Shown: positions 3,478 through 61,192 of the stretch, piece after piece
How positions within the stretch are numbered: the stretch's first letter is position 1
Layout of the letters: every line of letters starts with the position of its first letter
DNA from: an uncultured Bacilli bacterium
GTDB taxonomy: Bacteria; Bacillota_I; Bacilli_A; RF39; UBA660
DNA length: 61,231 nucleotides
Reading direction: 5' to 3'
Assembly (NCBI GenBank): GCA_934096715.1
Contig: CAKOMQ010000005.1
Span: 1-61,231 of the forward strand
The notes under the pieces: model-generated
What the model saw: only the letters and a program-made list of their open reading frames with translations
Told to the model about the DNA's origin: nothing
The model's database searches: none
Program-made: the position numbers and the translations under genes

Positions 3478-3632
3478 TGTAGCTGTATTGTTGAGCGCAT
3501 GGACCAGTAATGGTTGACGAGGATAGTAGTTGTCGAATTATCAGCGGATGCTACTACGGATAAGGTTTATTCGTTAAATATACTACAAAATGTAAAATCT
3601 AAGATTACAACAAAAAGTATATTAAGGAAAGG
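3478..3632 (+). promoter_or_regulatory. glmS ribozyme/riboswitch
   Basis: Lies directly upstream of glmS. Cleavage-site context TTG/AGCGC at 3494. Conserved core GACGAGG and CAGCGGATGC. Confidence 0.85.
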
Positions 3633-6886: not shown

Positions 6887-9295
6887 ATGTTAAAGAAGAT
6901 ATTAAATGCAATTATTTGTTTAGGCTTAATAATGCAAAATTTTGCTTTTATTTTTCAAGTAGAAGCAGAAGAAATTAATACACCTAATATTAAGACTAGT
7001 GATATTTATCAAGGAAATAAAAAAGCAAAGCTTGATGATAATAATAATTTTATTATTGATAACTATGATGGTGTTTATTTGGATTTGAAACTTGAAAATA
7101 TTGAAGAGTCTAAAGATTATTATATTAAACTTGAAAACAAACAATATTCGATTGGTTTTATGTATGATGATTCATATCAAGATAAAACAAAATTATATTT
7201 TCATTATTTAGATGATTCAAATGGAATTCTAACTTATAATATTAAAGTTTGCGATAACTGGGAATGCAATAAAGTATATACATCAAAAGCAATAAATGTT
7301 AAGATAGACCATTTTGATAAAATTAAAAACAGTAAAGTTATTATTAGTGATATTAATCAAGGTGATAATAATTTTGAGACTAAAGATGAATATGGTTATA
7401 AAAATATATATTTAAATAACAAGCAAACTATTTCTTTAAAATTAACAGGAGAAAATTTAATTGATGATGCTAGTTATGTAGTAAATGGCGATGGATTACA
7501 AAGTAATTTAATTTATAGTGGTAGTGAACTTAAAAAAGGGGTAGAAGTAAAATATTATCCTACTCTAAGATCTAGTAGCTTTAATATTAACGTAGAACTT
7601 CAAGGTATTCAAATTCAACCAAAGATAAAATACAATGATGGAACAAAAACATATGATTATTTTCAAATTATTTTAAATGAAGATGAAAATTTACAAAGTT
7701 ATTCATATAATCTTTTCTATACTAATTATCTGAACAAAAAAATAAAAAAATCTGACTTGGAATACAAAGAATATTATATTATTAATAGTAATTATCATAA
7801 TGATAATAATACATTATCATTGAATATTAATGGGAATAAATATTTAGATAAAGATTATCAAATAACAATCAGTGTCAAGCAAGCTAACAATACAATATAT
7901 AATAAAAAATTAAATGTTAATGGCCTATTATTAAATAATGGTTATCAAATAGAATTGGATGGCTTAGCATTAGAATTAAATAAAGATGAAAATGGAGAAT
8001 TATATGAATTCTATGTTGATGTAGATAATGCAGTGACAAAGCAAGAATACAAATACAACTCTGTAGGTAAAGATGCTTATATTAGTTCTAATATATTTTT
8101 TGAAAATGGTAAAAAAAATCTATCTGTGTTTAGAGGAGATGGAAACTACTTCTTTAATAGTGGAATATATGACACAAATAAAGATGTATTTACAAAGTAT
8201 AATTCAATTTTTCTAAGATATATGGGAAGTAATCTTAACAATGATGAAACTTATGAGTATATTTTAGAATATGGTAACTTTAATGAAAGTAACAATTCAA
8301 GAAACTATGAAGTAACCTTAAAAACAGGTAAAGTAACAGGTTTTTTATTAAATACAATTGGTTTATTATTTAAGGTAGATAATAATAAAAATTATATTAA
8401 TCCTGTATATAAGTTAACATTAAAAAAAGGTGATGAAATACTATATGTAGACGCTCCAGTTATATATATAGTTAATTCTCCAACATTAGCTAATGTAAGT
8501 TTAAAGGCAAATAAAAAGAATTTATATTTAAAAACTAGTGATTTATCATATATTGCCACAAGGAATAGTCAAATAGAATTTTCTGTTTCTGGACTTGGTT
8601 TTGAAGAAAACACATATTATGAATTTGATTATTGTACTTCTTTAAATTATAATAATGAAAATCCAAATGGTAACAATAAATGTGAAAAAGTAAAATTTAA
8701 AGGTAAAGATTTAAATAGTGGTACAGCAGTATTAAAATATGATAAAAAGATAGATAAAAATGTAAAATCAATTGATGTATATTTATATTGTGAATTAAAA
8801 AAATTCTCTTCAGAAAATTCTACTATTCAAGGAGGATTTAATGTTACATTTGTGGATAGTAAAGATTTCTTTCAAAATTTAACAAAATATTTTGTAGATA
8901 ATGTTAATGATTTAATCAAAAATATTAGTAAAAATACCAATGTAGAAGATTTTACTAAAAATGTTGATATTAAAGATAATGGTAAAGTTAAAATATTTGA
9001 TACAAATGGAACAACAGAGATTAACGGTAAAATTGGAACTGGAATGATAGCAAGAGTAGTAAATGAATATGATGAAAATGTGCTTGATTTAGATGTTGTA
9101 GTAAAAGGTGATGTAACTGGAGATGGTAATATTTCAGTTACGGATTTAGCTAAAATTAAAAGACATTTGGCAGGTAACGAAAAATTAACTGGAGTTTATG
9201 AAACAGCTGGAAATATTACTGATTCAGGAAGTGTAAGTATAACTGATTTAGTAAAAATTAGTAGAGATGTAGCTAAAATTCAGGAGGTTAAATAG
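6887..9295 (+). CDS. Large secreted N/K/Y-rich repeat protein with C-terminal dockerin-type repeats
   Basis: SD AAGGAG before ATG 6887, with a signal peptide ending FQVEA/EE. C-terminal GDVTGDGNISVTDLAKIKRHL and GNITDSGSVSITDLVKISRDV match the dockerin Ca-binding repeat pattern. Confidence 0.7.
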   Translation: MLKKILNAIICLGLIMQNFAFIFQVEAEEINTPNIKTSDIYQGNKKAKLDDNNNFIIDNYDGVYLDLKLENIEESKDYYIKLENKQYSIGFMYDDSYQDKTKLYFHYLDDSNGILTYNIKVCDNWECNKVYTSKAINVKIDHFDKIKNSKVIISDINQGDNNFETKDEYGYKNIYLNNKQTISLKLTGENLIDDASYVVNGDGLQSNLIYSGSELKKGVEVKYYPTLRSSSFNINVELQGIQIQPKIKYNDGTKTYDYFQIILNEDENLQSYSYNLFYTNYLNKKIKKSDLEYKEYYIINSNYHNDNNTLSLNINGNKYLDKDYQITISVKQANNTIYNKKLNVNGLLLNNGYQIELDGLALELNKDENGELYEFYVDVDNAVTKQEYKYNSVGKDAYISSNIFFENGKKNLSVFRGDGNYFFNSGIYDTNKDVFTKYNSIFLRYMGSNLNNDETYEYILEYGNFNESNNSRNYEVTLKTGKVTGFLLNTIGLLFKVDNNKNYINPVYKLTLKKGDEILYVDAPVIYIVNSPTLANVSLKANKKNLYLKTSDLSYIATRNSQIEFSVSGLGFEENTYYEFDYCTSLNYNNENPNGNNKCEKVKFKGKDLNSGTAVLKYDKKIDKNVKSIDVYLYCELKKFSSENSTIQGGFNVTFVDSKDFFQNLTKYFVDNVNDLIKNISKNTNVEDFTKNVDIKDNGKVKIFDTNGTTEINGKIGTGMIARVVNEYDENVLDLDVVVKGDVTGDGNISVTDLAKIKRHLAGNEKLTGVYETAGNITDSGSVSITDLVKISRDVAKIQEVK

Positions 9296-10224
9296 TGAAA
9301 AAAGTATTATTAAATTTAATTTTATTACTTTCCGTTTTTGCATTTGCAACCAATGTTAATGCAAGTGGTTTTGAAGCAAATATTATAGGAGATGATACTT
9401 TTAATGAGAGTATAACACTTTATCTTCAAGTTGATAATATGGTTGACTTTTCAGGAGCATGTAAAGGATTATGTGGCTTAGTAGGTAATTTAAATTATGA
9501 TTCAAATAAAATAGAATTATCATCTGTAAAAGCACTAAAACACTTTGATTTAACTCAAGGAGCTTCACTTGTACTTTATAAAAATACTGGTGTTGCAAAC
9601 AAGTCAAATATAATGGAAATGAAGTTTAAAAACAAATCTTTAATAAAAGATGAAACTACGAAAATAACACTTACAAATATAGTTGCTACTGATGGAGATA
9701 AAGATATCAGTACTGATGATGCATCAAAAACAATTAAATTTGTAAACAAAACGATAACTAATGAAAAAAATATCATATCATCAAAAAATAAAAGTACTAA
9801 CACATCAAAAAAGTCAAATAATAATTATTTGTCATCAATTAGTTTAAGTTCAGGGGACATTAAATTTAGTAAAGAAATCCTAACTTATAACATCGAAGTG
9901 GATTATGAAATATCTTCACTTGATATAAAAGCAGAAAGTGAAAACAATAAGGCAACAATTACCGGAATAGGTAACCATTCTTTAAATGTTGGAAAAAATG
10001 TCTTTAAAATAGTAGTTAAAGCTGAAGATAAAAGTTCGAGAGTGTATACATTAAATGTTACTCGTAAAGAAAAAGATTCTTCAACTAATAGTGATATTCT
10101 TAACAATAAAAAAACAGCAAATGATAATAATCGCACTGTAATTATTGTTGTACTTTCTATAATAGTCATTGCAGGAATAACTAGCATTGTTATTTGGAAG
10201 AAAAAAAAAGAAACTAGCATGTAG
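9295..10224 (+). CDS. C-terminally membrane-anchored protein: cohesin-like N-domain plus cadherin-like beta-sandwich domain
   Basis: Signal peptide present. LNYDSNKIELSSVKA is a cohesin-like core. NNYLSSISLSSGDIKFSKEILTYNIEV...YTLNVTRK is a cadherin-like pattern. C-terminal TM segment plus KKKK. The start overlaps the stop of the dockerin gene. Confidence 0.5.
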   Translation: MKKVLLNLILLLSVFAFATNVNASGFEANIIGDDTFNESITLYLQVDNMVDFSGACKGLCGLVGNLNYDSNKIELSSVKALKHFDLTQGASLVLYKNTGVANKSNIMEMKFKNKSLIKDETTKITLTNIVATDGDKDISTDDASKTIKFVNKTITNEKNIISSKNKSTNTSKKSNNNYLSSISLSSGDIKFSKEILTYNIEVDYEISSLDIKAESENNKATITGIGNHSLNVGKNVFKIVVKAEDKSSRVYTLNVTRKEKDSSTNSDILNNKKTANDNNRTVIIVVLSIIVIAGITSIVIWKKKKETSM

Positions 10225-10266
10225 GCAAATGCTTATATGCTTTTTTCTTGTTATAATATTTGGAAA

Positions 10267-10959
10267 CTACAGATTATTCTTACTTTTAATAAATTCTCTT
10301 AATATTTTAGTTAAAGCTCTTTTTTCTATTCTAGAAACATAACTTCTAGATATATTTAATTCTTTAGCTATTTCTTTTTGGGTCATGTCTTTCTTATTAT
10401 TAAGGCCATATCTTTTGATAATAATTTCTTTTTCTCTAGGCGATAAAATACTTAAATATTTAATTAATAATTCAATATTATTTTTATTATGAATAGTATC
10501 TATGATATCAGGTTGTTTATCTTCTATTAAATCTTCTAAATTAATTTCATTTCCTTCTTTATCAAATCCAATTGAGTCATTCAAAGAAACTGTATATTGA
10601 TTTTTCTTACTAGCTCTAAAGTGCATAAGTATTTCATTTTGAATACATCTTGCTGCATAAGTAGTAATCTTAGTAGTAGGATTTTTCTTATATGTATCAA
10701 TTCCCTTGATTAATCCAATAGTACCAATACTTATAAGATCATCACTAATTGTTCCTTTATTATCAAATTTTTTTACTATATGAGCAACTAGTCTTAAATT
10801 ATGTTCAATTAATTTACTACGAGCTTCCTTATCTCCTTCTAGCATCTTATCAACTAACATTTCTTCTTCTTCTTTTTCAAGTGGAGGTAAGAAAACATTA
10901 ACCCCATAACTACCAGTAAAAAATAGCATTCCTTTAATAATTGCTATTAAATTTAGCAT
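10267..10959 (-). CDS. sigK: Sporulation sigma factor, pro-sigma-K type
   Basis: LIEHNLRLVAHIVKKF, ISIGTIGLIKGI, YAARCIQNEILMHFR and ISRSYVSRIEKRAL closely match B. subtilis SigK. An N-terminal pro-sequence is present. The gene is uninterrupted. Confidence 0.85.
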   Translation of the reverse strand: MLNLIAIIKGMLFFTGSYGVNVFLPPLEKEEEEMLVDKMLEGDKEARSKLIEHNLRLVAHIVKKFDNKGTISDDLISIGTIGLIKGIDTYKKNPTTKITTYAARCIQNEILMHFRASKKNQYTVSLNDSIGFDKEGNEINLEDLIEDKQPDIIDTIHNKNNIELLIKYLSILSPREKEIIIKRYGLNNKKDMTQKEIAKELNISRSYVSRIEKRALTKILREFIKSKNNL

Positions 10960-11039
10960 TACATCACATCCTAATAAAGTATATTCTTAAAACTTGAAAA
11001 AAATATGATATAATTAGGTGGTAAAGAGAAGGTGAAAAA

Positions 11040-13586
11040 ATGACAAAAGTTATCTTAGTTGATGGTAATAATTTAATGTTTAGATCATTCTATGCTACTA
11101 TCCATTCTGGTCAAATTATGAAAAGTAGTAAAGGAGTACCAACCAATGCCTTATTTGGATTTACTAATATGATTAACAAAATAATAGATCAAGAAAAACC
11201 TGAGTATATGTGTGTAGCTTTTGATATAGGGAAAAATTTTCGTAAACAAGAATACGATTTTTATAAAGAAGGTCGTGAGTCTACTCCGGATGAATTAAAA
11301 ATTCAAATGAAACTTGCTCATGATATTCTTGATGTAATGGGAATAAAGCATGTTGAAATGGAACCATATGAAGCTGATGATATTATTGGTACAGTTGTAA
11401 ATATGGCTGAGAAAGACCCTAAATACGAATCAGTTATTATTTCTAGTGATAAAGATTTACTTCAACTAATTAGTGATGAAACGGAAGTTAAATTATTAAA
11501 ACAAGTAGGTAATATTAGATATAATAAATCTAAGTTTATTGAAGACTATGGAATTGATCCAATTAAAATTATTGATTTAAAAGCACTGATGGGAGATAAA
11601 AGCGATAATATTCCAGGCGTTAGGGGAATTGGCGAAAAGACAGCATTGAAATTATTACAAGAATATAAAGATTTAGATGGAGTATATAATAATCTAGATA
11701 AATTAACTCCTAAAATAAGACAATACTTAACTGAAGATAAAGAAAGCGCTTATATGAGTAAAAAAATAGCTACTATTTATAGAGAAGTACCACTTGATTG
11801 TAATTTTGAAGATTTTAAATACCTTGGACCAGACATAGATAAGTTATTGAAATTATATGATGAATTAGAATTTTTCTTCTTCTTAAAAAGATATAAAAGA
11901 GAAGAAAAAGTTGATACTAGTTTTATAACTATAAATAATGTTGATGAACTAATACTTGATAACTTTATATCAATTTATCTAGAAGTATCTGATAGTAACT
12001 ATCATATTGGAGAAATACTCGGTATGTCTATAACAGATAAAAATAATACATACTATATTAAGAAAGAATTAATTAATGAAGTACTTCCTTTAATTAAAAA
12101 TAAAGAAATAATCACTTATGATTTAAAGAAACATCTAGTTAAATTAGGAAAGATTAACTGTAATTTTGATTTGATGATTGCCGCTTATCTTCTTAACTAC
12201 AATATAAAAGATGACATTGGTGTTCTTATGAGTAGCATGGGATATGAAGTTACATATTATGATTTATTTAAGAAAAGTAAGTTTGAAAACTTAGAAAGTG
12301 TATGTTCTAAAAAGAGTAAATTTATCTTTAATGTTTATGAAATAATTAAAGAAAGACTTGAAAAAGAAGATCATATGTATTTATTCAATAAAATAGAGAT
12401 GCCTTTAATAGAAGTATTAACTGATATGGAATTAACTGGATTTAAAGTAGAAGACTCAATTTTAGAAAAAATGACTAAAGATATTGAAGCAAAGATAGAT
12501 ATAGTCAGTAGAGATATATTTAACTTAACTGGATGTGTTTTCAATATAGCTAGTCCTAAACAACTAGGAGAAGTCTTATTTGATAAACTTGAACTAGGTA
12601 AAGGTATAAAGAATAGAAGTGGATATAAAACTGATGTTAAGACACTTCAAAAACTTGTAGATGTTCATCCTGTTATTAATAAAATATTTGAATATAGAAA
12701 TCTTACTAAGATTAAAGGTACTTACTTAGATGGTTTAAGAAGTTATATCTTAAGTGATGGTAAAATACATACTATATTTAATCAAACACTTACAAGAACT
12801 GGTAGACTATCAAGTATGGATCCTAACTTACAAAATATTCCTGTAAGAGAAGAGTTAGGAAGAAAAGTAAGAATTGCTTTTGTTCCAGAAAATGATTATA
12901 TTTTAAGTAGTGATTACTCCCAAATAGAATTAAGACTTATGGCTCATATTAGTGACTCAAAAGAATTAAAAGATGCATTTATTCATGGAGAAGATATCCA
13001 TCGTAAAGTAGCTAGTGATATATATGGTGTACCACTTGAAGACGTAACAAAGAATATGCGTTCTACTGCTAAAGCAGTTATATTCGGGATTATTTATGGT
13101 ATCAGTGGTTATGGTTTAGGGGAAAACTTAAATATAAGTAAAAGTGAAGCCGATGAATTTATAAAAAAATATTATGAATTATATCCAGGTGTAAAAAAAT
13201 ATATGGATGATACCATTAGAACTACTAAAGAAACAGGATATGTAAAAACACTGTTTGGAAGAGTTAGAAAGATAGATGAAATAAAAAATTCTAATTTTAT
13301 GGTTCGTCAAATGGGAGAAAGAATGGCTCTAAACACTCCAATTCAAGGAACAAGTGCTGATATTATGAAACTTGCTATGATTAACATTTATAATAAATTT
13401 AAAGAATTAAATATTCAAAGTAAAATGATTTTACAAGTACATGATGAAATACTTGTTGATACTAAAAAAGAAGAATTAGAGTTGGTTAGTAAAATAGTTA
13501 AAGAAGAAATGGAAAATGTCTATAAACTAAGTGTACCATTAAAAGCTGAAGTAGATTATGGTATTAACTGGTATGAAGCAAAGTAG
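11040..13586 (+). CDS. polA: DNA polymerase I
   Basis: 5' nuclease domain (LVDGNNLMFRSFYA) and polymerase motifs (DYSQIELR, QVHDE). Confidence 0.97.
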   Translation: MTKVILVDGNNLMFRSFYATIHSGQIMKSSKGVPTNALFGFTNMINKIIDQEKPEYMCVAFDIGKNFRKQEYDFYKEGRESTPDELKIQMKLAHDILDVMGIKHVEMEPYEADDIIGTVVNMAEKDPKYESVIISSDKDLLQLISDETEVKLLKQVGNIRYNKSKFIEDYGIDPIKIIDLKALMGDKSDNIPGVRGIGEKTALKLLQEYKDLDGVYNNLDKLTPKIRQYLTEDKESAYMSKKIATIYREVPLDCNFEDFKYLGPDIDKLLKLYDELEFFFFLKRYKREEKVDTSFITINNVDELILDNFISIYLEVSDSNYHIGEILGMSITDKNNTYYIKKELINEVLPLIKNKEIITYDLKKHLVKLGKINCNFDLMIAAYLLNYNIKDDIGVLMSSMGYEVTYYDLFKKSKFENLESVCSKKSKFIFNVYEIIKERLEKEDHMYLFNKIEMPLIEVLTDMELTGFKVEDSILEKMTKDIEAKIDIVSRDIFNLTGCVFNIASPKQLGEVLFDKLELGKGIKNRSGYKTDVKTLQKLVDVHPVINKIFEYRNLTKIKGTYLDGLRSYILSDGKIHTIFNQTLTRTGRLSSMDPNLQNIPVREELGRKVRIAFVPENDYILSSDYSQIELRLMAHISDSKELKDAFIHGEDIHRKVASDIYGVPLEDVTKNMRSTAKAVIFGIIYGISGYGLGENLNISKSEADEFIKKYYELYPGVKKYMDDTIRTTKETGYVKTLFGRVRKIDEIKNSNFMVRQMGERMALNTPIQGTSADIMKLAMINIYNKFKELNIQSKMILQVHDEILVDTKKEELELVSKIVKEEMENVYKLSVPLKAEVDYGINWYEAK

Positions 13587-33884: not shown

Positions 33885-33922
33885 TTTTTTAGTAGAAAAA
33901 ATAGAAAGTGAGACCCCGAAAA

Positions 33923-36728
33923 ATGAAGAAAAATGCTAATTTATTAGCAACCTTCCAGAAGTTAAAAAGCCTACTGGGGGGGGGGCGAGAAACAACAAAA
34001 AAGAACTTTAATTATAGCATTAATATTAGTAGAATTTCTATTAATTATATGTGCTTACATTTCATATAATAATAAAAATTTAGACAAATATATATTTAAT
34101 TCAAAAGATTTAAAAAGTAGTGGTTTATTTGCCATTATGTTAGAAGATTCAGATGGTAATTACAAGCAAAGTACTAAAGATGAATTTCCAGGTTATGAAT
34201 ACTTTTATAATCAAACAAAATCAGGATGCATGAATTCTAGTGGTAAGACAATACCGGATTCTCTTTTATATGATCAAGAAAATAAAAAAGCTACAGTAAA
34301 ATTGAACTCATCTGGTATGTGTTATCTTTATTTTAATAAATATAAAACAGATAACTTTGCATCCAAACTAATTGATAGTGGCAATTTATGGGATAGTGGA
34401 CTTGAAGGCGATGGCTACAGATTTACAGGAACAGGAATAACATGTTCTTATGATGATGGTAAATATGTTATCGCAGCTGATAATCAACAAACAACACCAA
34501 GTTGTCCTAAAAGATATAATTATACAAGGACAACTATATCAGATGGTACAACTACAGATTATACTTATCAGACAAGTTGTCCAACAGATACGACAACCTA
34601 TACTTATTCATGCACTGAATTAAACGGAGAAACTAGTAGCAAAAATATTCCATCTAATTTTGTTTGTTTTGGAACAACCGATGTGTCTGAATGTACAGCA
34701 AACCAAGATAAATACATGTATAGAATAATTGGAGTATTTACTGATTCAAGTGAAAAGCAACACGTAAAACTTATAAAATATACTAGTATTGGTTCTTATC
34801 AATGGCATTCAGATGGTTCTGAAACAGTGACATGGAAAAATACAGATTTATATAGCGGATTAAATGGAAGTTATTTCTTAACAAATACAGCCTACGATTA
34901 TATACAAAATACAACATGGCTAAATAAAATCGAAAATTGGACATGGAATGCCTTGTTAACCAATGTTGGTGAAAATGAAGGGGATAATGATAATCCGGAT
35001 TTAGGCGGTAGTACTATTAAAGGTGTGTATTTCAGTGAAATGAATATAAATTCTAGCGAAAAATTATGTGGGAATTACAATGGAGAAAAAATTACATGCA
35101 ACAATGGTTTATTGACAACACCTACAGGAAAAATAGGCTTAATGTATGTAAGTGATATGTTGTTGTCCTATGGACCAGAGAATACAGAAACATCTAAACA
35201 TTCTCAATTAAACACAACATGGCTTAATGCAAATAGTAACATAGGCAAAATAAGTGACTGGTCAATATCTCAAGATGGTTTTTATCCAGATGACGATAGT
35301 TATGTCTACTACTTTGATTATGATGGTTCTCCTGATTATGGTTATTACACAGATAATTATGATACTAGGCCAGTATTTTATCTAACAAGTGATGTTTCTT
35401 CTAGTGAAGGCTCTGGTACAATAGATAATCCATATATTCTAGGCACGTCTTCTAGTAGTAGTTCTTTAAAAATAGATGTAAAAAATGCAAAGAATGTTAT
35501 GACTGCAACAATAAAAAAAGGAACAGGTAATTTAACTAAGTATTGCATAAATAATAAAGCAACAATAAATGACTGTGAATGGAAGAGTATTACAACTACA
35601 ACAATAACTTACACAATGCCTGAATATAAAAAATATTATATACATGTAATAGATAATCAAGGTTTTATTGCACATGCATACCTAAACTATGAAGCTAAGA
35701 TACTTAGTCAAAAACTTATAGATACAAAAGAAATGTGGCAAAGTGGACTTGAAGATGATGGATATCGTTATACTGGAACAGGAATAATTTGTTCATATGA
35801 TAATGGATTTTATTATAAGTTAGCAGATAATCAACTTTCTAATCCGAGTTGTCCTACACTCTATAATTATACTACTACCCAAGGTGGTTACTCTTATCAA
35901 GATTCATGTCCTGATGGAACCACATGTACATCAGTCAATGGTGAAGTTGCTGAAGATGCATCAATACCAAACAATTATATTTGCTTTGGAACAGTAAGTC
36001 AAAATGAATGTTTAAATAATAAGGATAAATATATGTATCGAATAATTGGAGTGTTTAAAGATGCGAGTGGTTCTAACCATGTAAAGTTAATAAAAAATGA
36101 AACGTTAGTAGGAGTACAATGGACTAGTGACACTAGTTATGTAAGCTTTGGCGAAAGTAATATTTATAATGAAATAAATGGAGATGCGTTTATGAATAAT
36201 ACTTATTATGATTATTTGCAAAACACAAAATGGTTAAATAAAATAGAGAATTGGACATGGAGTGCTCTTGATACTAATAATCAATATTACTACTATTTTC
36301 AAATAAGCGACATATATCTACATGAGCTAAATAAATCTTCAAATACAAATTCAACAGGAACATGGACAACCCCAGTAGGTAAAATAGGCTTAATGTATGT
36401 AAGTGATTATGCACTTTCAATTGGAGATAATGCTATAAATAGTGCACTAACACCAAGTAAAGAGTTGTTAAAAAATAGTTGGATTCATTGTAATTTATTA
36501 AAAGATAATTGTATGGAATATACTATTACAAATTATGGGGCGAGAATTGTTAATAATAGAAACTTAGGAATTTATGTATTTACAATATCTTATAATGGCG
36601 AAGTTCCTGTAAATGGTGGAACATCATCATCATTTATTTATCGACCGGTCTTCTATTTAACAAGTGATGTTAAATCAATTCCAGAAGGCGATGGTACTAT
36701 CACAAATCCATATATGATTGTGGAATAA
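33923..36728 (+). CDS. Phase-variable surface protein B. Two tandem RPVFYLT-type domains. Frame-shifted (OFF) at the G10 tract in this sequence.
   Basis: ATG 33923 reads MKKNANLLATFQKLKSLLGGG and then stops at 34067-34069. The body frame is open from 33966 and encodes a basic segment plus a TM anchor, with no start codon before 34137. G11 or G8 would give one continuous ORF. Confidence 0.75.
33976..33985 (+). repeat. G10 homopolymer tract (contingency tract) in the 5' coding region of gene B
   Basis: Counted directly: ctactGGGGGGGGGGcgag. Confidence 0.95.
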
Positions 36729-36862: not shown

Positions 36863-36899
36863 TTTAGTAGAAAAAAATAGAAAGTGAGACCCCGAAACA

Positions 36900-39096
36900 A
36901 TGAAGAAAAATGCTAATTTATTAGCAACCTTCCAGTTTATAAAAAGCCTACTGGGGGGGGGGCGAGAAACAACAAAAGAAAACTTTAGTTATAGTATTAA
37001 TATTAATAGAATTGCTATTAATAATATGTGCTTATATATCATATAACAATAAAACTTTAGACAAATATATTTTTGGAAGTAGTGATTTAAAGAATACTAA
37101 TCTTTTTGCAATTATGATCGAAGATGCAAATGGAGAATATAAAGAAAGTTCATTAACTTCTTTTCCAGGATATGACTATTTTTATAATCAAGAAAAATCT
37201 AGTTGTATGGATATGTCTGGTAAACCAATAACTGACTCACTTTTATATAATCAAGACACTAAAACAGCAACAATAACAATTGGAGACACAAGTAGTTGTT
37301 ACTTATATTTTGATACTTGGAAAAGTACTCCGAATTTTGCATCTAAATTAATTGAGTCTAATGTGATGTGGCAAAGCGGACTTGATGGAGATGGTTATCG
37401 TTTTACTGGTACTGGATCTTATAGTAGTAGTACTACACCTTCAAACTTTATATGCTTTGGGACATTTGATAAATCTACATGTACAAGTAATCCTGATAAA
37501 TACATGTATCGTATAATTGGAGTATTTGATGGATATATTAAATTAATAAAATTAACAAGTTTAACTAGTAATCTTCAGTACGCAGGAGCTGGTTTTTCTC
37601 AAATTTCGGACTCTGGTCGTGTTTTTGCAAATTCTGTCTTAAAGAAAGAATTAAATGGGACATCATTTCTAACTAATACGACTTATGATTATCTGCAAAA
37701 TACAACTTGGTCAAATAAAATTGCTGTAAATACAAAAAAATCAGTTAATACTACAACATATACAAACAGTGGTCCAAATTATTATAATAGTGTTAGTCCA
37801 AGTCAAATATATCTTCATGAGTATAATAAATCAGGCAATTCTAATACTAATGGAGAATGGTCAACTTACAATGATAAAATTACAGTAATGGATGCAAGTG
37901 ACTATGTATTATCTTTAGGAAGCACAGCGAAATCAATGACTACTGGTACTTATACTAATAGAAATACTTTAAAAACAAGTTGGCTATTTCTGGGTAACAA
38001 TAAATATGGAAATACAAGTGGAAATTACACAACAGAACAAACAACAGCATCTTATGGAATACAATCAACTATAAGTTACATTTATTCTTGGACAATTAAT
38101 CCTAGTGGTTATTTATATCAAACATCTATAAGTAATTCATATGCAGTAAGACCAGTTTTCTATCTTACAAAAGATACAACTAGTAACAATGGTACAGGAA
38201 CATTAAGTGATCCATATTTAATAGATGAAGTTCCTAAAGGAATAAATATTAATTTATCAAATACTGATAATATTCTATCTATTAAAATAACTGATGATTA
38301 TAGTACTCAGCTTAAATATTGTGTTAATAATAGTTCTTCAATAAGTGGATGTGAGTGGAAAAATGTTAACTCAAGTAATATTTCATATAATATGACAGAT
38401 GATGGTACCTATTATGTTCATGTTATAGATAGCTTAGGTTATATAAATCATAATAGCTTTAGTTATGTTGCCAGTGATTCTTATAATTTTGTTTTAGCGA
38501 TACCAGAGAAATGTTCAGATATAAATGGAAATTATTTTAATTTGCAACGTATGCCATCTGCAGAAAAATTAGGTACAAGGGCTGATGCCATAACAGAAGA
38601 AGATATTACTGTTTATGGAGTAAAAACAGAAAATTTAATGAGTTCCGATATTATTAATACAACAGAAAATGGAATAATATCATTTCCAAGTAATTTTGAA
38701 ACACAAAATTCATTTCCTTCATTATTTGATGCTTTGTACACCTGGTACTACAAGCTTACGGCAGGATATTCCCAATTTGAGTATGATTTCTATACACCAT
38801 ATACTATAAATAATGCTAGATATGATGGAATATATCAAAATAAGATGTTTGGAAATAGCTCAGTAGCACTGGATTATGATGAAATAACTTATTGGGTCGG
38901 ATACAAATGGATATTTTATGAAGTACCGCCAGGAAGTAATTTTGATGTCTTGAATCCAGATAGTCAGTATAGAATAAATTTTGTAACTAAAAAAGATACA
39001 ACTTTACCAATATACCAACTAATAAACAATGTGAAACTTCGTGGTAATTATACTTACTATGGTATTTATGAATATTATGAAGTATATTCAGAATAA
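36900..39096 (+). CDS. Phase-variable surface protein C. One RPVFYLT-type domain, an Ig-like module and a unique C-terminal domain. Frame-shifted (OFF) at G10.
   Basis: ATG 36900 reads MKKNANLLATFQFIKSLLGGG and then stops at 37044-37046. The body frame from GGC 36961 encodes GEKQQKKTLVIVLILIELLLIICAYISYNNKTL.... The only in-frame alternative start (TTG 37012) lies inside the TM helix. Confidence 0.75.
36953..36962 (+). repeat. G10 homopolymer tract in the 5' coding region of gene C
   Basis: Counted directly: ctactGGGGGGGGGGcgag. Confidence 0.95.
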
Positions 39097-47893: not shown

Positions 47894-48265
47894 ATGGATT
47901 ATTTATATTATTTAATTTATTTTATAGGGGTATTTCTTATTATATTTCTATGTGACTATTTAATAATGAAGAAACCTTATTTAAACAAGAAAAAGAAGAA
48001 AAAAGATAATGAAGTATTTGAACTCACTTATATAGTTAGTAAATTTAAATTAGATAAGAGTAAACTAAATATTAAAAAGTGTTTAATAGAGTTTTCTTTA
48101 ATGAATGCCTTTATTATTAGCTTTACAGTAGTAGTACTCTATATACTAGATTTATTTATAATATGGCAATTCTTAATAGGATTTATCCTGTTAGTGGGTC
48201 TTATTTATTCAATATATGAAATTTATGGAAATATTTTAGTTAAGAAAGGATATATTAAAAAATGA
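47894..48265 (+). CDS. Small membrane protein, 123 aa, co-transcribed with leuS
   Basis: SD AAAGGAG. Hydrophobic segments flank a K-rich loop. The stop overlaps the leuS start (ATGA). Confidence 0.6.
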   Translation: MDYLYYLIYFIGVFLIIFLCDYLIMKKPYLNKKKKKKDNEVFELTYIVSKFKLDKSKLNIKKCLIEFSLMNAFIISFTVVVLYILDLFIIWQFLIGFILLVGLIYSIYEIYGNILVKKGYIKK

Positions 48266-51072
48266 ATTATAATGAGATAGAAAAAAAATGGCAAAGTATT
48301 TGGGATAAAGAAGAAAGTTTTAAAGCAGTTAATGGAAGTAGTAAAGAACCATACTATATTTTAGTAGAATTTCCTTATCCAAGTGGAGCAGGACTTCATG
48401 TAGGTCATGTACGTAGTTATACTGCTCAAGATGCGATAGCGAGAATGAAAAGAATGCAAGGCTACAACGTATTATTCCCAATGGGATGGGATGCTTTTGG
48501 AGCACCTGCTGAAGGATATGCAATAAAAAATCATATTCATCCTAAAGATGCTGTAAAAGAAAATATCCATACTTTTAAAGGACAAATGCAAAATTTAGGA
48601 TTTTCATTTGATTGGTCAAGAGAATTTTCAACAACTGATCCAGAATATTATAAATGGACACAATGGCAATTTTTAAAGTTCTTTGAACATGGTATGGCTT
48701 ATAAAGATAAAATACCTGTTAACTGGTGTCCTAATTGTAAAACAGTTCTTTCTAATGAAGATAGTGCTGGTGGTGTATGTGAAAGATGTGGTACTAGTGT
48801 AGTTCAAAAAGAAAAAAGTCAATGGATGCTAAGAATGAGTAATTATGCTGAAGACTTACTTAATGGACTTGAAGATACTCATTTTGCTAGTAAAGTAAAA
48901 CTAGGTCAAATTAACTGGATAGGTAAAAGTACTGGTGCAGAAGTGAATTTTAAAGTAGCTGATACTGATTATGAATTTACTGTTTATACTACTAGACCTG
49001 ATACATTATATGGAGTTACTTATTGTGTATTATCTCCAGAACATGAACTCGTGGATAAGATAACTAAACCTGAAAACTACGAAGAAGTATTTAAGTATAA
49101 AGAAGAATGTTCTCATAAGAATGAAATGGAAAGAACAGAACTTAATAAAGAAAAAACCGGTGTATTTACAGGAAGCTTTGCTATTAATCCAGTTAATAAT
49201 GAATTAATACCAATCTATATAAGTGATTATGTTTTAGTAAGTTATGGAACTGGTGCTATTATGGCTGTTCCAGCTCATGATGAAAGAGACTATGAATTTG
49301 CTAAAAAGTTTAATATTCCAATTAGGCAAGTTCTTGAAGAGATAACTGGCAAGAAAAATGATTCTGAAAGTAAGAAAAACTCAATAGTAGCGATTGTTTA
49401 TGATGAATTAGAAAATAAATATTTAACAATTAATTGGGGTAAACTTGGTGGTAGATTATTTGTTGGTGGAACTATTAAAGAAAATGAAACTCCTGTTGAA
49501 TGTGCTATTAGAGAAATAGCAGAGGAAACTGGCTATACTGATATTGAATTAGTAAGAGAATCATTTAAAATAAACCATCATTATTATGCTTATAATAAAG
49601 ATAAGTATTTTGATATAGAAGCAACACCTATATTATTTAAATTAAATAGTTACAAAAAAATTGAACAAAATCTTGATGAAGATGAGATATTTAAGATTGA
49701 ATGGGTGAGTAAAGATATTATTGAAAAAGAAATAATAGATGAATTACATAAAAAATCTTATTTATATACATTAAATGATACTGCTTTAGTAGGAGATGGT
49801 ATTCATATTAATTCTGGTATTTTAGATGGCCTTAATAAAGAAGATGGAATTAATAAGATGATCGAATACTTAACTACAAATAATATAGGTAAAAAGAAAA
49901 CTAATTATAAGATGCGTGATTGGATATTCTCAAGACAAAGATTCTGGGGAGAACCAATACCTATTGTAATATGTGATCATTGTGGTTATGTACCTCTTCC
50001 TGAAAGTGAATTACCATTAGTACTTCCTGATGTTGCTAATTATGAACCAACTGATAATGGAGAGAGTCCACTTGCTAATATAGAGTCTTGGGTTAATACT
50101 ACTTGTCCAAAGTGTGGTCGTCCTGCTAAAAGAGAAACAGATACAATGCCTAACTGGGCTGGATCTAGCTGGTATTTCTTAAGATTTATGGATGCTCATA
50201 ATGATAAAGAATTTGCTAGTATGGATGCTATGAAATATTGGCAAAAAGTTAACTGGTATAATGGTGGTATGGAACATACAGCAAGACACTTACTATATGC
50301 TAGATTTTGGGTACAATTTCTATATAATATAGGTCTTGTTCCTAATAAAGAAATGATTGATACAAGAGTTAGTCACGGTATGGTACTTGGTAGTGATAAT
50401 CAAAAAATGAGTAAAAGTAAAGGTAATGTAATTAATCCAGATGATATAGTTAGTGAGTTTGGAGCAGATACTCTAAGAGTATATGAAATGTTTATGGGTG
50501 ATTATGAACAAGATGCTCCATGGAGTACTGAATCCTTACGTGGATGTAAAAGATTTATTGACAGAGTAGTTAGACTTAAAGATAAAGTAGTTGAAGGAAC
50601 ATCTTATTCTTCTAACTTAGAAGTAATCATTAATAAATCTATTAAAAAGATTAGTTATGACTTACTAAATATGGGTTACAATACAGTAGTATCTCAATTA
50701 ATGATTATGTTAAATACTTATGAAGAACAAGACACTATTACTTCATCTGATTATAATGTATTCTTAAAACTATTAAATCCTATCGCTCCACATATAACTG
50801 AAGAGTTAAATGAACAAATAGGATATGAAAAAATATGTGATAGTACTTGGCCAGAGTATGATGAATCTAAAACTGTAGATAATAATCTTACTATTGGAGT
50901 ACAAGTAAATGGTAAGTTAAGAGCAGAAATTAATATTACTCTAAACGAAGATAAAGCTAGTATTTTAGCTAAAGCTAAAGAAGAAGAAAACATAAAAAAA
51001 TATCTTGAAGGACACACTATTATAAAAGAAATAGTAGTACCTAACAAGATAGTTAACATAGTTGTTAAATAG
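48262..51072 (+). CDS. leuS: Leucine--tRNA ligase with an inserted Nudix-fold domain
   Basis: HVGHVRSY (HIGH), KMSKSKGN, and the CP1 editing motif TTRPDTLYG. The extra segment at ~49339-49788 contains GTIKENETPVECAIREIAEETGY, which matches the Nudix box GX5EX7REUXEEXGU. Confidence 0.95.
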   Translation: MNYNEIEKKWQSIWDKEESFKAVNGSSKEPYYILVEFPYPSGAGLHVGHVRSYTAQDAIARMKRMQGYNVLFPMGWDAFGAPAEGYAIKNHIHPKDAVKENIHTFKGQMQNLGFSFDWSREFSTTDPEYYKWTQWQFLKFFEHGMAYKDKIPVNWCPNCKTVLSNEDSAGGVCERCGTSVVQKEKSQWMLRMSNYAEDLLNGLEDTHFASKVKLGQINWIGKSTGAEVNFKVADTDYEFTVYTTRPDTLYGVTYCVLSPEHELVDKITKPENYEEVFKYKEECSHKNEMERTELNKEKTGVFTGSFAINPVNNELIPIYISDYVLVSYGTGAIMAVPAHDERDYEFAKKFNIPIRQVLEEITGKKNDSESKKNSIVAIVYDELENKYLTINWGKLGGRLFVGGTIKENETPVECAIREIAEETGYTDIELVRESFKINHHYYAYNKDKYFDIEATPILFKLNSYKKIEQNLDEDEIFKIEWVSKDIIEKEIIDELHKKSYLYTLNDTALVGDGIHINSGILDGLNKEDGINKMIEYLTTNNIGKKKTNYKMRDWIFSRQRFWGEPIPIVICDHCGYVPLPESELPLVLPDVANYEPTDNGESPLANIESWVNTTCPKCGRPAKRETDTMPNWAGSSWYFLRFMDAHNDKEFASMDAMKYWQKVNWYNGGMEHTARHLLYARFWVQFLYNIGLVPNKEMIDTRVSHGMVLGSDNQKMSKSKGNVINPDDIVSEFGADTLRVYEMFMGDYEQDAPWSTESLRGCKRFIDRVVRLKDKVVEGTSYSSNLEVIINKSIKKISYDLLNMGYNTVVSQLMIMLNTYEEQDTITSSDYNVFLKLLNPIAPHITEELNEQIGYEKICDSTWPEYDESKTVDNNLTIGVQVNGKLRAEINITLNEDKASILAKAKEEENIKKYLEGHTIIKEIVVPNKIVNIVVK

Positions 51073-51121: not shown

Positions 51122-51197
51122 AAAAAAGCTGTCGAGTTAATTCTCGATAGCTTAACCAACATTTTGGCATAGGCGAAACATGCTTGCTCGTTTACCT
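51122..51197 (-). ncRNA. Orphan third copy of the antisense sRNA gene (no peptide ORF opposite)
   Basis: Minus-strand TTGATA (51227-51232), 17-nt spacer, TACACT (51204-51209). Terminator AAGCTATCGAG-loop-CTCGACAGCTT plus TTTTTT (51122-51152). The body is homologous to 14710-14755. Confidence 0.5.
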
Positions 51198-51304
51198 AAA
51201 TTAAGTGTACACAAAAATTTGTAAAATATCAACCATTTTATTGCAATTCATAATCAAATTTGGTATGATAAAATAGATAAATTAAATAAAAATATTTAAA
51301 AATT

Positions 51305-51451
51305 ATGAATTTTATGACCCGAAATTTTATACCGGTAAGTTATAAAATTCCCCTTCAGACGCTAAAAAGCCTACTGGGGGGGGGGGTTGAGAAAATGAGT
51401 CTGATGTGTGAATATAGGGAAGTAAAAATTTCTCTTTTTTATTTTTTATAA
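51305..51451 (+). CDS. 48-codon upstream ORF containing the G11 tract (MNFMTRNFIPVSYKIPLQTLKSLLGGGVEKMSLMCEYREVKISLFYFL)
   Basis: Not in the ORF track (under 60 aa). Shares ...LKSLLGGG-(G/V)EK with the B and C leaders. Ends 15 nt before ATG 51466. Confidence 0.4.
   Translation: MNFMTRNFIPVSYKIPLQTLKSLLGGGVEKMSLMCEYREVKISLFYFL
51376..51386 (+). repeat. G11 homopolymer tract in the leader of gene D
   Basis: Counted directly: ctactGGGGGGGGGGGttgag. Confidence 0.95.
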
Positions 51452-51465
51452 AAGGAAGTGAGAAA

Positions 51466-52998
51466 ATGAAAAAAATGGATAAGAAACAAAGAATATCTTT
51501 TATCATTGGGATATTTGCATTATTGATTTTTGTAATAGGAGCAACATATGCATACTTTAGTATTGGAACTAATAATACTACTACAGATTCAAGTGTTGTA
51601 GGTACAACAAACAAGTATGGTACAGCAAGTTTAACAACTAATACAAGCAAACTATATTTAAAATTTACGAGTGATGAAATGAGTGAAGACTATCAAGGTA
51701 CAACATATTACGCAAATTCTGATAGTGCTGGAACACCCCTTACAACTAATCCAAACTATGTGTTAGCAACCGCAAGTCTAGCAGATGGAGATTTACCACT
51801 TGATTGCGAGTATAATTATAAGGTAACTGCTACAGTAACAAAAGAAATTAATGATGGTAGTGACTCTGATGTAAAAATAACCATTGGAAGTACAACAAAA
51901 ACATTAAAAGAATTAACTGCTGCAGGTACTGATGGAATAGTAATAAATGGTAAACTAAAAAACTTAGTAACAGGAACAAATCAAACAATAAGTTTATCCA
52001 GTACAGTAACAAATACACCATCAAATCAAAATGGACTATCAGGTAATTCATATACAGTAACTATTTCTCCATATATAAGTGGTAATACAAAGTCATTTTC
52101 ATGTAAGTTGCATGAAAAAACACTTGCCGAAAAATTAATAGCAAGTGGAAACTTATGGGAAAGTGGACTAGAAGGCGATGGATATCGTTATATAGGAAGT
52201 GGTGCAGTAGGAACTAGTACTAATCCAAATAACTTTATATGCTTTGGTACAACAGATAAATCTGCTTGTACAGCAAATCAAGATAAATACATGTATAGAG
52301 TAATAGGAGTATTCTCAGATGCAAATGGAGATAATCATGTTAAGCTAATCAAATATAAACAACTAGTATCAGCAAAATGGAATACAAAAGATACAAATGT
52401 AAATTGGGAAGATAGTACATTATATGCAAGTCTAAATGGCACAGAATTCTTAACAAATACAACATATGATTATTTACAAGATACAACATGGAGTAATAAA
52501 ATAGAAAACTGGACATGGAGTGCCATAAATACAAAAACGTCTAATGGAGGTAATGGATCAAATTATTACAGCGTATTAACACCAAGTCAAATATATTTAC
52601 ATGAAATGAACAGAAGTACAAAAACAAGTACAGTAGGTGAATGGACAACACCAGCAGGAAAAATAGGATTAATGTATGCAAGTGATTATACATTATCATT
52701 GGGATCAAGTGCTTTAGCAATAACAGGAAGTACTAGTGCAAATCAAGACAAATTAAAAACAGGCTGGATGCATCAAAGTAATAATGATATTTCTAAATCA
52801 ACTACAGAATGGACGCTTTCTCGTCGTGGGTCTAATGCTGGTTACTTCGAAGCGTGGAGTGTCGCTAGTAGCGGCTTTGTCAGCGGCATTTTTGTGTACA
52901 CTGCGTATGGTACTCGACCAGTCTTCTATCTTACATCTAACGAATCGACTTCTAGTGGAGATGGAAGTTTAGAAAATCCATTTATCATTAGTGAATAA
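51466..52998 (+). CDS. Surface protein D of the family (one RPVFYLT-type domain) with a SipW-type-looking signal peptide
   Basis: SD AAAGGAAGTGAG. N-terminal TM segment ending IGATYAYFS. The C-terminal ~290 aa align with the B and C domains (LWESGLEGDGYRY, DKYMYRVIGVF, NKIENWTWSA, GKIGLMYASDY, RPVFYLTS). Confidence 0.85.
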   Translation: MKKMDKKQRISFIIGIFALLIFVIGATYAYFSIGTNNTTTDSSVVGTTNKYGTASLTTNTSKLYLKFTSDEMSEDYQGTTYYANSDSAGTPLTTNPNYVLATASLADGDLPLDCEYNYKVTATVTKEINDGSDSDVKITIGSTTKTLKELTAAGTDGIVINGKLKNLVTGTNQTISLSSTVTNTPSNQNGLSGNSYTVTISPYISGNTKSFSCKLHEKTLAEKLIASGNLWESGLEGDGYRYIGSGAVGTSTNPNNFICFGTTDKSACTANQDKYMYRVIGVFSDANGDNHVKLIKYKQLVSAKWNTKDTNVNWEDSTLYASLNGTEFLTNTTYDYLQDTTWSNKIENWTWSAINTKTSNGGNGSNYYSVLTPSQIYLHEMNRSTKTSTVGEWTTPAGKIGLMYASDYTLSLGSSALAITGSTSANQDKLKTGWMHQSNNDISKSTTEWTLSRRGSNAGYFEAWSVASSGFVSGIFVYTAYGTRPVFYLTSNESTSSGDGSLENPFIISE

Positions 52999-60921: not shown

Positions 60922-61003
60922 ATGTGAAGTTTTAGTTGCATATCTATACTAAAAATGATATGATTAATTTGATAATAAAAGAGAATAAAATTATTTAAAA
61001 ATT

Positions 61004-61192
61004 ATGAATTTTATGACCCGAAATTTTATACCGATAAGTTATAAAATTCCCCTTCAGAACGCTAAAAAGCCTACTGGGGGGGGGGTTGAGAAAATGAGTC
61101 TGATGTGTAAATATAGGGAAGTAAGTTCTTCTCTTTTTTATTTAGAAAAGAAGGAAGGTAGTCTGAAAACAAAAAACAAATTTATTTTATAG
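61004..61192 (+). CDS. Fourth copy of the G-tract leader ORF. The downstream partner gene is absent, decayed, or lies beyond the window.
   Basis: Homologous to 51305-51451 at the nucleotide level. Reads through G10 in frame (…PTGGGVEKMSLMCKYREV…). Confidence 0.35.
   Translation: MNFMTRNFIPISYKIPLQNAKKPTGGGVEKMSLMCKYREVSSSLFYLEKKEGSLKTKNKFIL
61076..61085 (+). repeat. G10 homopolymer tract, fourth copy
   Basis: Counted directly: ctactGGGGGGGGGGttgag. Confidence 0.95.

Follow-up and report, generated by a model that had tools for sequence, protein, structure and literature searches.

A length-variable G tract upstream of paralog D in an uncultured Bacilli bacterium is part of a conserved leader fold and probably acts through RNA structure

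We analyzed a 61,231-nt stretch of DNA from an uncultured Bacilli bacterium (GenBank assembly GCA_934096715.1, contig CAKOMQ010000005.1, positions 1 to 61,231 of the forward strand; hereafter the window) with respect to a run of 11 G residues situated between the promoter and the start codon of a gene designated paralog D. The length of this tract varies among otherwise identical sequences, and structure prediction combined with covariation indicates that what the leaders of this kind preserve is a three-way-junction fold in which the tract serves as one strand, and not a coding frame. The tract probably tunes D through RNA structure rather than through the upstream open reading frame (uORF) that crosses it. 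Specifically, we propose that the D leader is an attenuator in which tract length would decide whether a CCC segment near the 5′ end of the fold is locked by the tract or is free to pair with the 5′ arm of a terminator-like hairpin. We advance this model tentatively and put its probability at roughly 40%.

Results

The D leader and its relatives

The components of the D leader are collected in Table 1, together with three further copies of the same cassette (B, C, and E). The D leader transcript likely starts from the sigma-70-type promoter at its 5′ end, which would place the transcription start near 51276; the −10 hexamer of this promoter occupies positions 51264-69, and the G tract begins 106 nt 3′ of it. 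An initial annotation of this locus had described the promoter, the tract of 11 G's (G11), a 48-codon uORF crossing the tract, and a separate start codon and ribosome-binding site for D, and all of these were recovered in our analysis at the same coordinates. The consensus scan added an upstream TG to the promoter, and the independence of the D start was borne out by its homologues: all D-type homologues begin there, without any fusion to the uORF. An N-terminal extension of D itself was considered as well and was rejected, as the D frame is closed by a TAG at 51415-17.

Table 1. Coordinates of the D leader and of related cassettes in the window
Feature	Position	Strand	Remarks
Coding cassette B	33906..33985	+	Shine-Dalgarno (SD) sequence, GACCCC, ATG 33924, P1 hairpin, CCUUCCAG, loop, G10; OFF at G10 with respect to the open reading frame (ORF) 34137-36728
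Coding cassette C	36883..36962	+	ATG 36901, G10 at 36953-36962; OFF at G10 with respect to ORF 37012-39096
Conserved block	51192..51240	+	TTACCTAAATTAAGTGTACACAAAAATTTGTAAAATATCAACCATTTT; 5′ of the promoter; near-identical in L019a, L018a, and L018b (another genome)
Promoter	51241..51269	+	Sigma-70-type, TTGCAA-17-TATGAT, TG at 51261-62 (extended −10); called by consensus scan
uORF	51305..51451	+	48-codon ORF crossing the G tract; ATG 51305, stop 51449-51451; probably untranslated
P0, 5′ strand	51316..51320	+	GACCC; pairs with the last G's of the tract and UU (51384-51388); also complementary to the hairpin 5′ arm
P1	51323..51349	+	A/U-rich hairpin, AAUUUUAUA...UAUAAAAUU; inside P0
P2	51350..51382	+	CCCCUUCAG (pyrimidine tract) paired with CUG and G's 1-7 of the tract
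G tract	51376..51386	+	Hypermutable G11; 3′ strand of both P2 and P0
Terminator-like hairpin and U run	51416..51447	+	AGGGAAGU-AAAA-AUUUCUCU (51416-51435), then UUUUUUAUUUUUU; candidate attenuator; −5.9 kcal/mol
SD sequence of D	51452..51462	+	AAGGAAGTGAG; −9.9 kcal/mol against the anti-SD
Paralog D	51466..52998	+	510 amino acids; N-terminal hydrophobic helix; conserved C-terminal domain (...RPVFYLT...)
Leader copy E	60936..61192	+	Near-identical leader, TTGCAT-17-TATGAT, same fold, G10 at 61076-61085, hairpin 61115-61134; no D-type gene follows

Eight leaders, spanning three genomes and three sequence types, were compared: those of D and E in the window and six upstream of D-type genes (L017a, L018a, L018b, L019a, L020a, and L021a), five of them from GCA_977040245.1 and one from GCA_964327805.1. 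With the coding copies B and C, these give a set of ten cassettes. Twelve contig look-ups were made around D-type genes, five of which reached paralogs without the leader. A good promoter ~100-145 nt before the tract and an uninterrupted tract of nine to eleven G's (G9-G11) are found in all eight leaders, and all except the orphan copy E have an SD sequence and an ATG 75-89 nt past the tract. The promoter lies at the same position in E, L019a, L018a, L018b, and L021a (TATGAT or TAAGAT); L017a has a weaker TTGCAT version, and L020a reads TTTACA-17-TATAAT.

The region 5′ of the −35 element is also kept across genomes together with the promoter. This block of ~50-70 nt (…TTACCTAAATTAAGTRTACACAAAAATTTGTAAAATATCAAC…) occurs at 51192-51240 of the window, at ~340-390 of contig L019, and at ~7300-7355 and ~14700-14745 of contig L018. 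It could be a regulator-binding or UP-type site, or just part of the duplicated cassette.

Rarity and length variation of the G tract

Long G runs are scarcely expected in the window, which has a GC content of 26.6%. Runs of at least eight G's gave 13 overlapping matches against 0.10 expected, and only four G/C runs of at least seven exist in the 61 kb; all four are runs of G on the + strand, and all belong to the same cassette, with starts at 33976 (B), 36953 (C), 51376 (D), and 61076 (E). The D tract is, moreover, length-polymorphic rather than invariant. Contigs of the same strain, which encode an identical D protein, carry G11 (L004), G10 (L005), and G9 (L006), as read from assembled public contigs to which homopolymer assembly error may contribute. 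In the alignment with the window, L006 (4,214 bases) has no substitutions and a single 2-nt gap, which is the tract, and L005 (4,630 bases) has one substitution and a single 1-nt gap, again the tract. Two properties of a contingency locus, an uninterrupted homopolymer beyond base composition and length polymorphism among otherwise identical sequences, are present here. For B and C, an effect of tract length on expression would follow from the reading frame, and for D it is a proposal of the model developed below.

Several public contigs start or stop inside leaders, within a few bases of the G tract (L005 and L021 at position 1; L008, L009, and L010 at their ends). Such breaks fit a repeated, length-heterogeneous sequence. 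Short-read assemblies are therefore interrupted at the cassette, and metagenome-assembled genomes will lack many of its copies.

Coding and noncoding copies of the cassette

The initial annotation had further claimed that one cassette is reused among B, C, and D. This reuse is real, and it extends to E as a fourth copy. In B and C, 17 codons from the ATG precede a tract of G10, and both frames stop within ~10 codons; at G11, the frame would instead open into a transmembrane segment and the ORFs that follow (34137-36728 and 37012-39096). As read from the sequence, both copies switch by an ordinary frameshift, with G10, the length seen here, as the OFF state and G11 as the ON state. Public homologues of B and C have been called in both states, namely ON (P0004, P0005, and P0041, with N-termini of the form MK.NANLLATFQ..KSLLGGG...) or OFF from an internal Met (P0008 and P0019). 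Three B-type homologues (P0003, P0010, and P0012) are called with a start right after the tract position (MKRQKRTLIIAL...), which points either to a different start site or to a form of the B-type 5′ end that has no tract. The accompanying idea that one cassette serves two uses was upheld insofar as the tract is in frame in B and C and lies in a noncoding leader in D, but not in its assignment of leader control to the uORF.

Copy E, which is also present in contig L007 (6949-7298), retains the U run and an SD-like GAAGGAAGG. No start codon comes after these, and downstream the copy meets the terminator of a convergent gene. The locus, seemingly orphaned or decayed, has nonetheless preserved its tract.

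A conserved predicted three-way junction

The unit shared by the cassettes is a predicted fold of ~75 nt and is far larger than the tract and a few flanking bases. Across the cassettes, the three or four G's at the 3′ end of the tract are paired in P0 with a 5′ (G/A)(A/G)CCC strand. In P2, a pyrimidine tract (UUCCCCUUC, UUCUCUCUC, UUCCUUCUCUC, or CCUUCC) and the CAG that follows it are paired with CUG and the six to eight G's at the 5′ end of the tract. This P0/P1/P2 arrangement was the minimum-free-energy structure in all ten cassettes, the coding copies B and C included, and the seven cassettes tested against shuffled sequences gave z-scores of −2.3 to −6.1. P1 and P2 were also recovered by RNAalifold from a MAFFT alignment. 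The number of G's matches the available partners: at G10, the junction of E closes without an unpaired G, and at G11, that of D bulges one.

Sequence changes among the cassettes follow this pairing. The inner pairs of P1 covary, with AACU/AGUU in type 2 versus AUCA/UGAU in type 3, and B and C have a different hairpin (UGCUAA/UUAGCA) in the place of P1. The apical pairs of P2 covary as well (CAG:CUG, CGGUAC:GUGCUG, and CAGAAGU:GCUUCUG), and C/U changes in this helix all remain compatible with pairing to G; its loop is the most variable part of the leader. The CCC at the P0 position is kept in all ten cassettes. Many of the P2 pairs are G-U and would turn into C-A mismatches in the complementary strand, which assigns the fold to the sense strand and, most simply, to the RNA. 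An Rfam search of the leader gave no family at the gathering threshold and only chance-level matches at E ≤10. The P2 loop of type 3 (L020, 9855-9895) contains a perfect 14-nt palindrome, CGAACACGTGTTCG, that is not in the other leader types.

The uORF and the candidate second promoter

In the initial annotation, control of D had been assigned to the uORF. Ribosomes translating it would reach the D ribosome-binding site only at G11 (or at G8 or G14), with translational coupling, unmasking of the ribosome-binding site, or antitermination through the hairpin as possible outcomes. The ORF and its frame behavior are exactly as described. At G11, the uORF frame passes through the hairpin and the U run, and its stop ends 14 nt before the ATG of D (51466), whereas a change in length brings an early stop (...GGGLRK* with TGA at 51396-98 for G10; TGA at 51388-90 for G12 or G9). 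The downstream frame is the same in E, since an extra A there is offset by one fewer G, and L019a has a frame that stops 5 nt short of the ATG.

Nonetheless, we consider it quite improbable that D is controlled in this manner. Shine-Dalgarno use is widespread in this genome, and neither of the uORF ATGs (51305 and 51314) has such a sequence, their values against the anti-SD being +1.6 and +0.4 kcal/mol compared to a median of −7.85 for 32 genes of the window and −9.9 for D. Of the eight leaders, the four of type 1 alone have an ATG-started ORF across the tract. In L017a and L018b, no NTG start of any kind gives a tract-crossing ORF, and L018a and L020a have only a GTG and a TTG, respectively, located 5 and 31 nt before the tract and lacking an SD sequence. 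The tract, the fold, the hairpin with its U run, and the SD sequence of the gene are nevertheless present in each of L017a, L018b, L018a, and L020a. The pattern seen in D at G11, in which the frame overlaps the terminator-like hairpin and stops near the ribosome-binding site, occurs in L019a in an unobserved frame (the observed frame stops inside the hairpin loop) and is missing from L021a, where the closest frame end is 42 nt from the gene start. When the 79 nt that follow the tract were shuffled, 24% of the shuffled sequences left 20 or more codons open in at least one frame, and a protein search found the uORF peptide to be unrecorded by any gene caller in a collection of 5.8 billion proteins.

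The uORF is thus present but statistically unremarkable, and it is not conserved, being missing from four of the eight leaders. Leader-peptide control would call for a start codon with a ribosome-binding site and for conservation of the uORF, neither of which was found, and translation of the uORF is unlikely. Read at G11 (LKSLLGGG-VEK), it runs parallel to the B frame in its ON state and so may be left over from an ancestral coding sequence. As a general mechanism by which tract length steers ribosomes to the D ribosome-binding site, the uORF has little support. Closest to the comparative data is the accompanying remark about protection from premature termination, although in the picture that we favor it would be RNA pairing, and not a ribosome, that affords this protection.

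A second reading offered in the initial annotation was that the tract abuts the −35 element of another promoter, TTGAGA-17-TGnGAATAT (51387-51415), and that its length sets the phasing of an upstream element. The sequence is present as described (TTGAGA at 51387-92, a 17-nt spacer, and TGTGAATAT at 51407-15). TTGAGA agrees with the −35 consensus at five of six positions, a TG precedes the −10-like hexamer, and a hexamer of this kind (GAATAT, TAGAAT, or TATAAT) occurs 20-24 nt past the tract in all leader types. However, the consensus scan gave no promoter call at this site, as GAATAT matches at only three of six positions, and the −35-equivalent position in types 2 and 3 reads GGCAAG, GGGAAG, or GGGCAA. 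All copies have a stronger, conserved promoter ~105 nt farther 5′. The tract is 5′ of TTGAGA and is therefore unable to alter the promoter spacer; it is also 3′ of the conserved −10, and it neither separates nor overlaps the −35 and −10 hexamers of either promoter. A transcript from this site would, in addition, be devoid of the P0/P1/P2 fold, whose covariation and G-U pairs point to sense-strand RNA. We regard a role for this promoter, and with it the phasing proposal, as highly improbable.

A candidate attenuator before the D ribosome-binding site

Just before the ribosome-binding site, 47-54 nt after the tract, seven of the eight leaders have a hairpin followed by a U run (−5.9 to −13.8 kcal/mol). 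The stems are unrelated between types: GGGAAG.../...CUUCUC in type 1, AAAGGCUA/UAGUCUUU in type 2, and GAAGAAGGGAAG/CUUACCCUUCUU in type 3. In each type, the 5′ arm of this hairpin is complementary to the CCC region of the upstream fold, through CCC:GGG and UUUUAU:GUAAAA (type 1), UAGCC:GGCUA (type 2), or CCCUU:AAGGG (type 3), and the resulting duplex beats shuffled controls in all three (p 0.002-0.07). When the transcript was modeled up to the terminator loop, the 5′ arm paired with the CCC region at a probability of 0.4-0.75 with short tracts in all seven leaders tested. This probability drops with a longer tract in six of the seven, and in most of them the drop starts within or just above G9-G11. 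In a control with shuffled arms, the observed value was reached in 4, 1, 7, 3, and 18 of 100 shuffles. We judge the evidence for an antiterminator to be modest.

Our model of D control can be put as follows. D would be transcribed from the conserved promoter with a leader of ~190 nt, in which the first seven or so G's of the tract pair in P2 and the last three in P0 with the 5′ CCC, P1 lying between. The hairpin and U run, ~30 nt past the fold and just before the D ribosome-binding site, would constitute an intrinsic terminator, and the leader would act as an attenuator with three states. With a long tract (~10 or more G's), P0 would form and lock the CCC, the terminator would fold, and expression would be low. 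With a short tract (~9 or fewer), P2 would consume all of the G's, leaving the CCC free to pair with the terminator 5′ arm as an antiterminator and allowing read-through into D. Changes in length by slipped-strand mispairing would then set D expression heritably, and the response would show a length threshold rather than a three-base periodicity. Since B and C carry the fold in coding sequence without a terminator, the fold may have a second, context-independent role in promoting instability of the tract, as reported for the hairpin in the 5′ untranslated region (5′-UTR) of hmw1A, which is discussed below.

Several observations weigh against attenuation. The hairpin of D is weak (two G-C and two G-U pairs, −5.9 kcal/mol) and was not called by the scan tool, which flagged a terminator in E (61115-61134) and in L019a only; in L021a the hairpin is lost through a G-to-T change. 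The shuffled-arm control is not significant for type 3 (18 of 100). The equilibrium probability of the terminator responds to tract length inconsistently: a threshold between 9 and 10 G's appears only in D and L018a, little or no length effect is seen in L017a, L018b, and L020a, and E and L019a show low values at all lengths. A helix of G's against pyrimidines tolerates shifts in register, so a change of one G may do little. Complementarity of CCC to GGG is also partly expected, because the CCC pairs with the tract and terminators need G's, and the presence of the fold without a terminator in B and C means that the fold does not require an attenuator. Finally, the comparison comprises three leader types only, with the tested segments picked after the pattern was seen.

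Another explanation is that the tract has no regulatory effect in D. It would be the relic of a B-type 5′ end that recombined in front of the gene, and it would be kept by duplication or gene conversion, or because the fold serves mutability only. Homology between the D and B cassettes extends to either side of the tract, the leaders of different paralogs are almost the same in sequence, with repeats that break public assemblies, and other D-type paralogs manage with ordinary promoters and no such leader (see below). The orphan E keeps its G10 without a gene, so maintenance of the tract could owe something to recent duplication or gene conversion, which likewise counts against attenuation. On the other hand, the uninterrupted tract, the fold (with compensatory changes), and the hairpin and U run at an unchanged distance have all persisted through divergence into three leader types, which is hard to explain without selection, and a neutral run of 11 G's in DNA of this base composition should be interrupted quickly. 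We consider a tract without regulatory effect to be unlikely.

Two other arrangements were rejected. A terminator switch based on equilibrium folding alone was dropped as inconsistent across the leaders, and a helix sequestering the SD sequence with the U run is present in the minimum-energy fold of the D leader and not in other leaders.

The D family

Paralog D is a member of a large, uncharacterised family; the search matched at least 493 homologues, and single genomes contain several paralogs. Only a subset of this family is placed under the hypermutable cassette: at least eight D-type genes have ordinary short promoter regions without a G-tract leader (L022 at 7009, 11830, 13364, and 16688; L019 at 8001; L052 at 224; L053 at 10001; and L054 at 10001). 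Tandem D-type pairs 16-27 nt apart are frequent (L017, 6429-9539; L016, 1-3099; L022, 11830-14884). In L017, a single G-tract leader precedes such a pair, so one tract may control two paralogs.

Variation within the family is greatest in the C-terminal region before RPVFYLT. In L020, the genes of a diversity-generating retroelement (bAvd and a reverse transcriptase, 7688-9456) lie directly 5′ of a G-tract leader and its D-type paralog (10001-11527); a simple repeat search gave no template/variable repeat pair next to this paralog. Neither Pfam nor NCBIfam has a family matching B, C, or D. The AlphaFold model of D is poor (mean pLDDT 51.6), and a Foldseek search gave nothing below E 0.001.

Searches for the cassette in wider sequence collections returned little. 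A scan of genome contigs with the cassette core gave only three chance matches, in high-GC genomes; a protein profile found five loci in metagenome contigs, none with the leader; and a degenerate leader pattern gave 29 matches in viral contigs, none with a G tract. Contigs related to the window carry the sporulation genes SpoVA, CotE, and YlbD.

Discussion

Phase variation by frameshift is known from Neisseria pilC, among other examples. It is also described for the poly-G genes of Campylobacter, in which a homopolymer lies in the 5′ coding region (PMC11955535). B and C are of this classical kind, with a tract 17 codons past the ATG and a frame that G11 would restore. D differs in that its tract lies outside the D coding frame, and no frame joins the two. 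In phase variation of promoter spacing, as for porA and opc of N. meningitidis, vlp of M. hyorhinis, and hif of H. influenzae, the tract is instead positioned between the −35 and −10 elements. D resembles these systems in having a homopolymer upstream of a surface-protein gene whose coding frame is untouched, but its tract is well 3′ of the conserved −10 and 5′ of the only candidate second −35. With respect to layout, the D leader is also reminiscent of riboswitches and leader attenuators, having a promoter, a structured 5′ domain, and a hairpin and U run before the SD sequence; the complement of the terminator 5′ arm lies in one strand of that domain. In D, however, there would be no ligand or ribosome, and the input would be a heritable DNA repeat length.

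By position and predicted pairing, D most resembles a small group of repeats that act inside the transcribed leader. In H. pylori, the length of a G repeat in the tlpB leader sets expression post-transcriptionally via RepG, a C/U-rich small RNA (sRNA) (PMC8295292). Both systems combine a variable homopolymeric G repeat in an mRNA leader with a C/U-rich RNA partner. The tlpB partner is a trans-acting sRNA, whereas in D it would be a cis-acting pyrimidine tract 20-30 nt upstream in the same leader.

The second precedent is H. influenzae hmw1A, in which a 5′-UTR hairpin formed by the repeat and a G-rich arm is reportedly needed for expression and for changes in repeat number (PMC12721329). The repeat is the heptamer ATCTTTC in 11 or more copies, and its pyrimidine arm pairs with a fixed G-rich arm (PMC12721329). 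The two systems share a transcribed, hypermutable repeat between promoter and start codon, cis pairing with a purine/pyrimidine complement, and a surface-protein gene. The D repeat lies between the conserved promoter and the SD sequence and ATG, which would place it within the transcript given the start site proposed above, and predicted pairing of the repeat with a stretch of the same leader or cassette extends to all ten cassettes. The part ascribed to the hmw1A hairpin in repeat change would, moreover, fit a fold common to coding and leader contexts here. The differences are that in D the variable element is the G homopolymer itself, closing two helices of a three-way junction; that a terminator-like hairpin lies downstream, which is not known to be part of the hmw1A model; and that the host is a spore-former of 26.6% GC and not a proteobacterium. 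D is set apart from both hmw1A and tlpB by the homopolymer as a junction strand, the cis pyrimidine partner, and the terminator-like hairpin that comes after.

Leader repeats of this kind represent a third route to phase variation beside coding frameshifts and promoter spacing, with few cases (hmw1A and tlpB) that act via RNase III or an sRNA. Should read-through into D depend on tract length, the cassette would be a compact, portable stochastic switch in a low-GC spore-forming lineage and one that frame-based predictors of phase variation miss. A broader version of the model, which we think rather unlikely, would have the repeat serve as the sensor strand of a riboswitch-like attenuator with stochastic, heritable mutation replacing the ligand, while the same module in B and C may promote its own instability, making it a portable switch with two read-outs. 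As a practical matter, gene callers and repeat-based phasome tools should examine leaders besides coding regions. The presence of one cassette in a coding mode (B and C) and a leader mode (D) within one genome also makes this a good system for asking how the fold affects repeat instability.

Additional observations

Two further features of the window are outside the cassettes. In the leucyl-tRNA synthetase gene (48262-51072), a match to a NUDIX domain (residues 399-490) follows the editing domain as an insertion, which is an unusual architecture. Upstream of the ORF at 3642-5402 lies a glmS ribozyme at 3483-3632 (Rfam RF00234, 67.3 bits).

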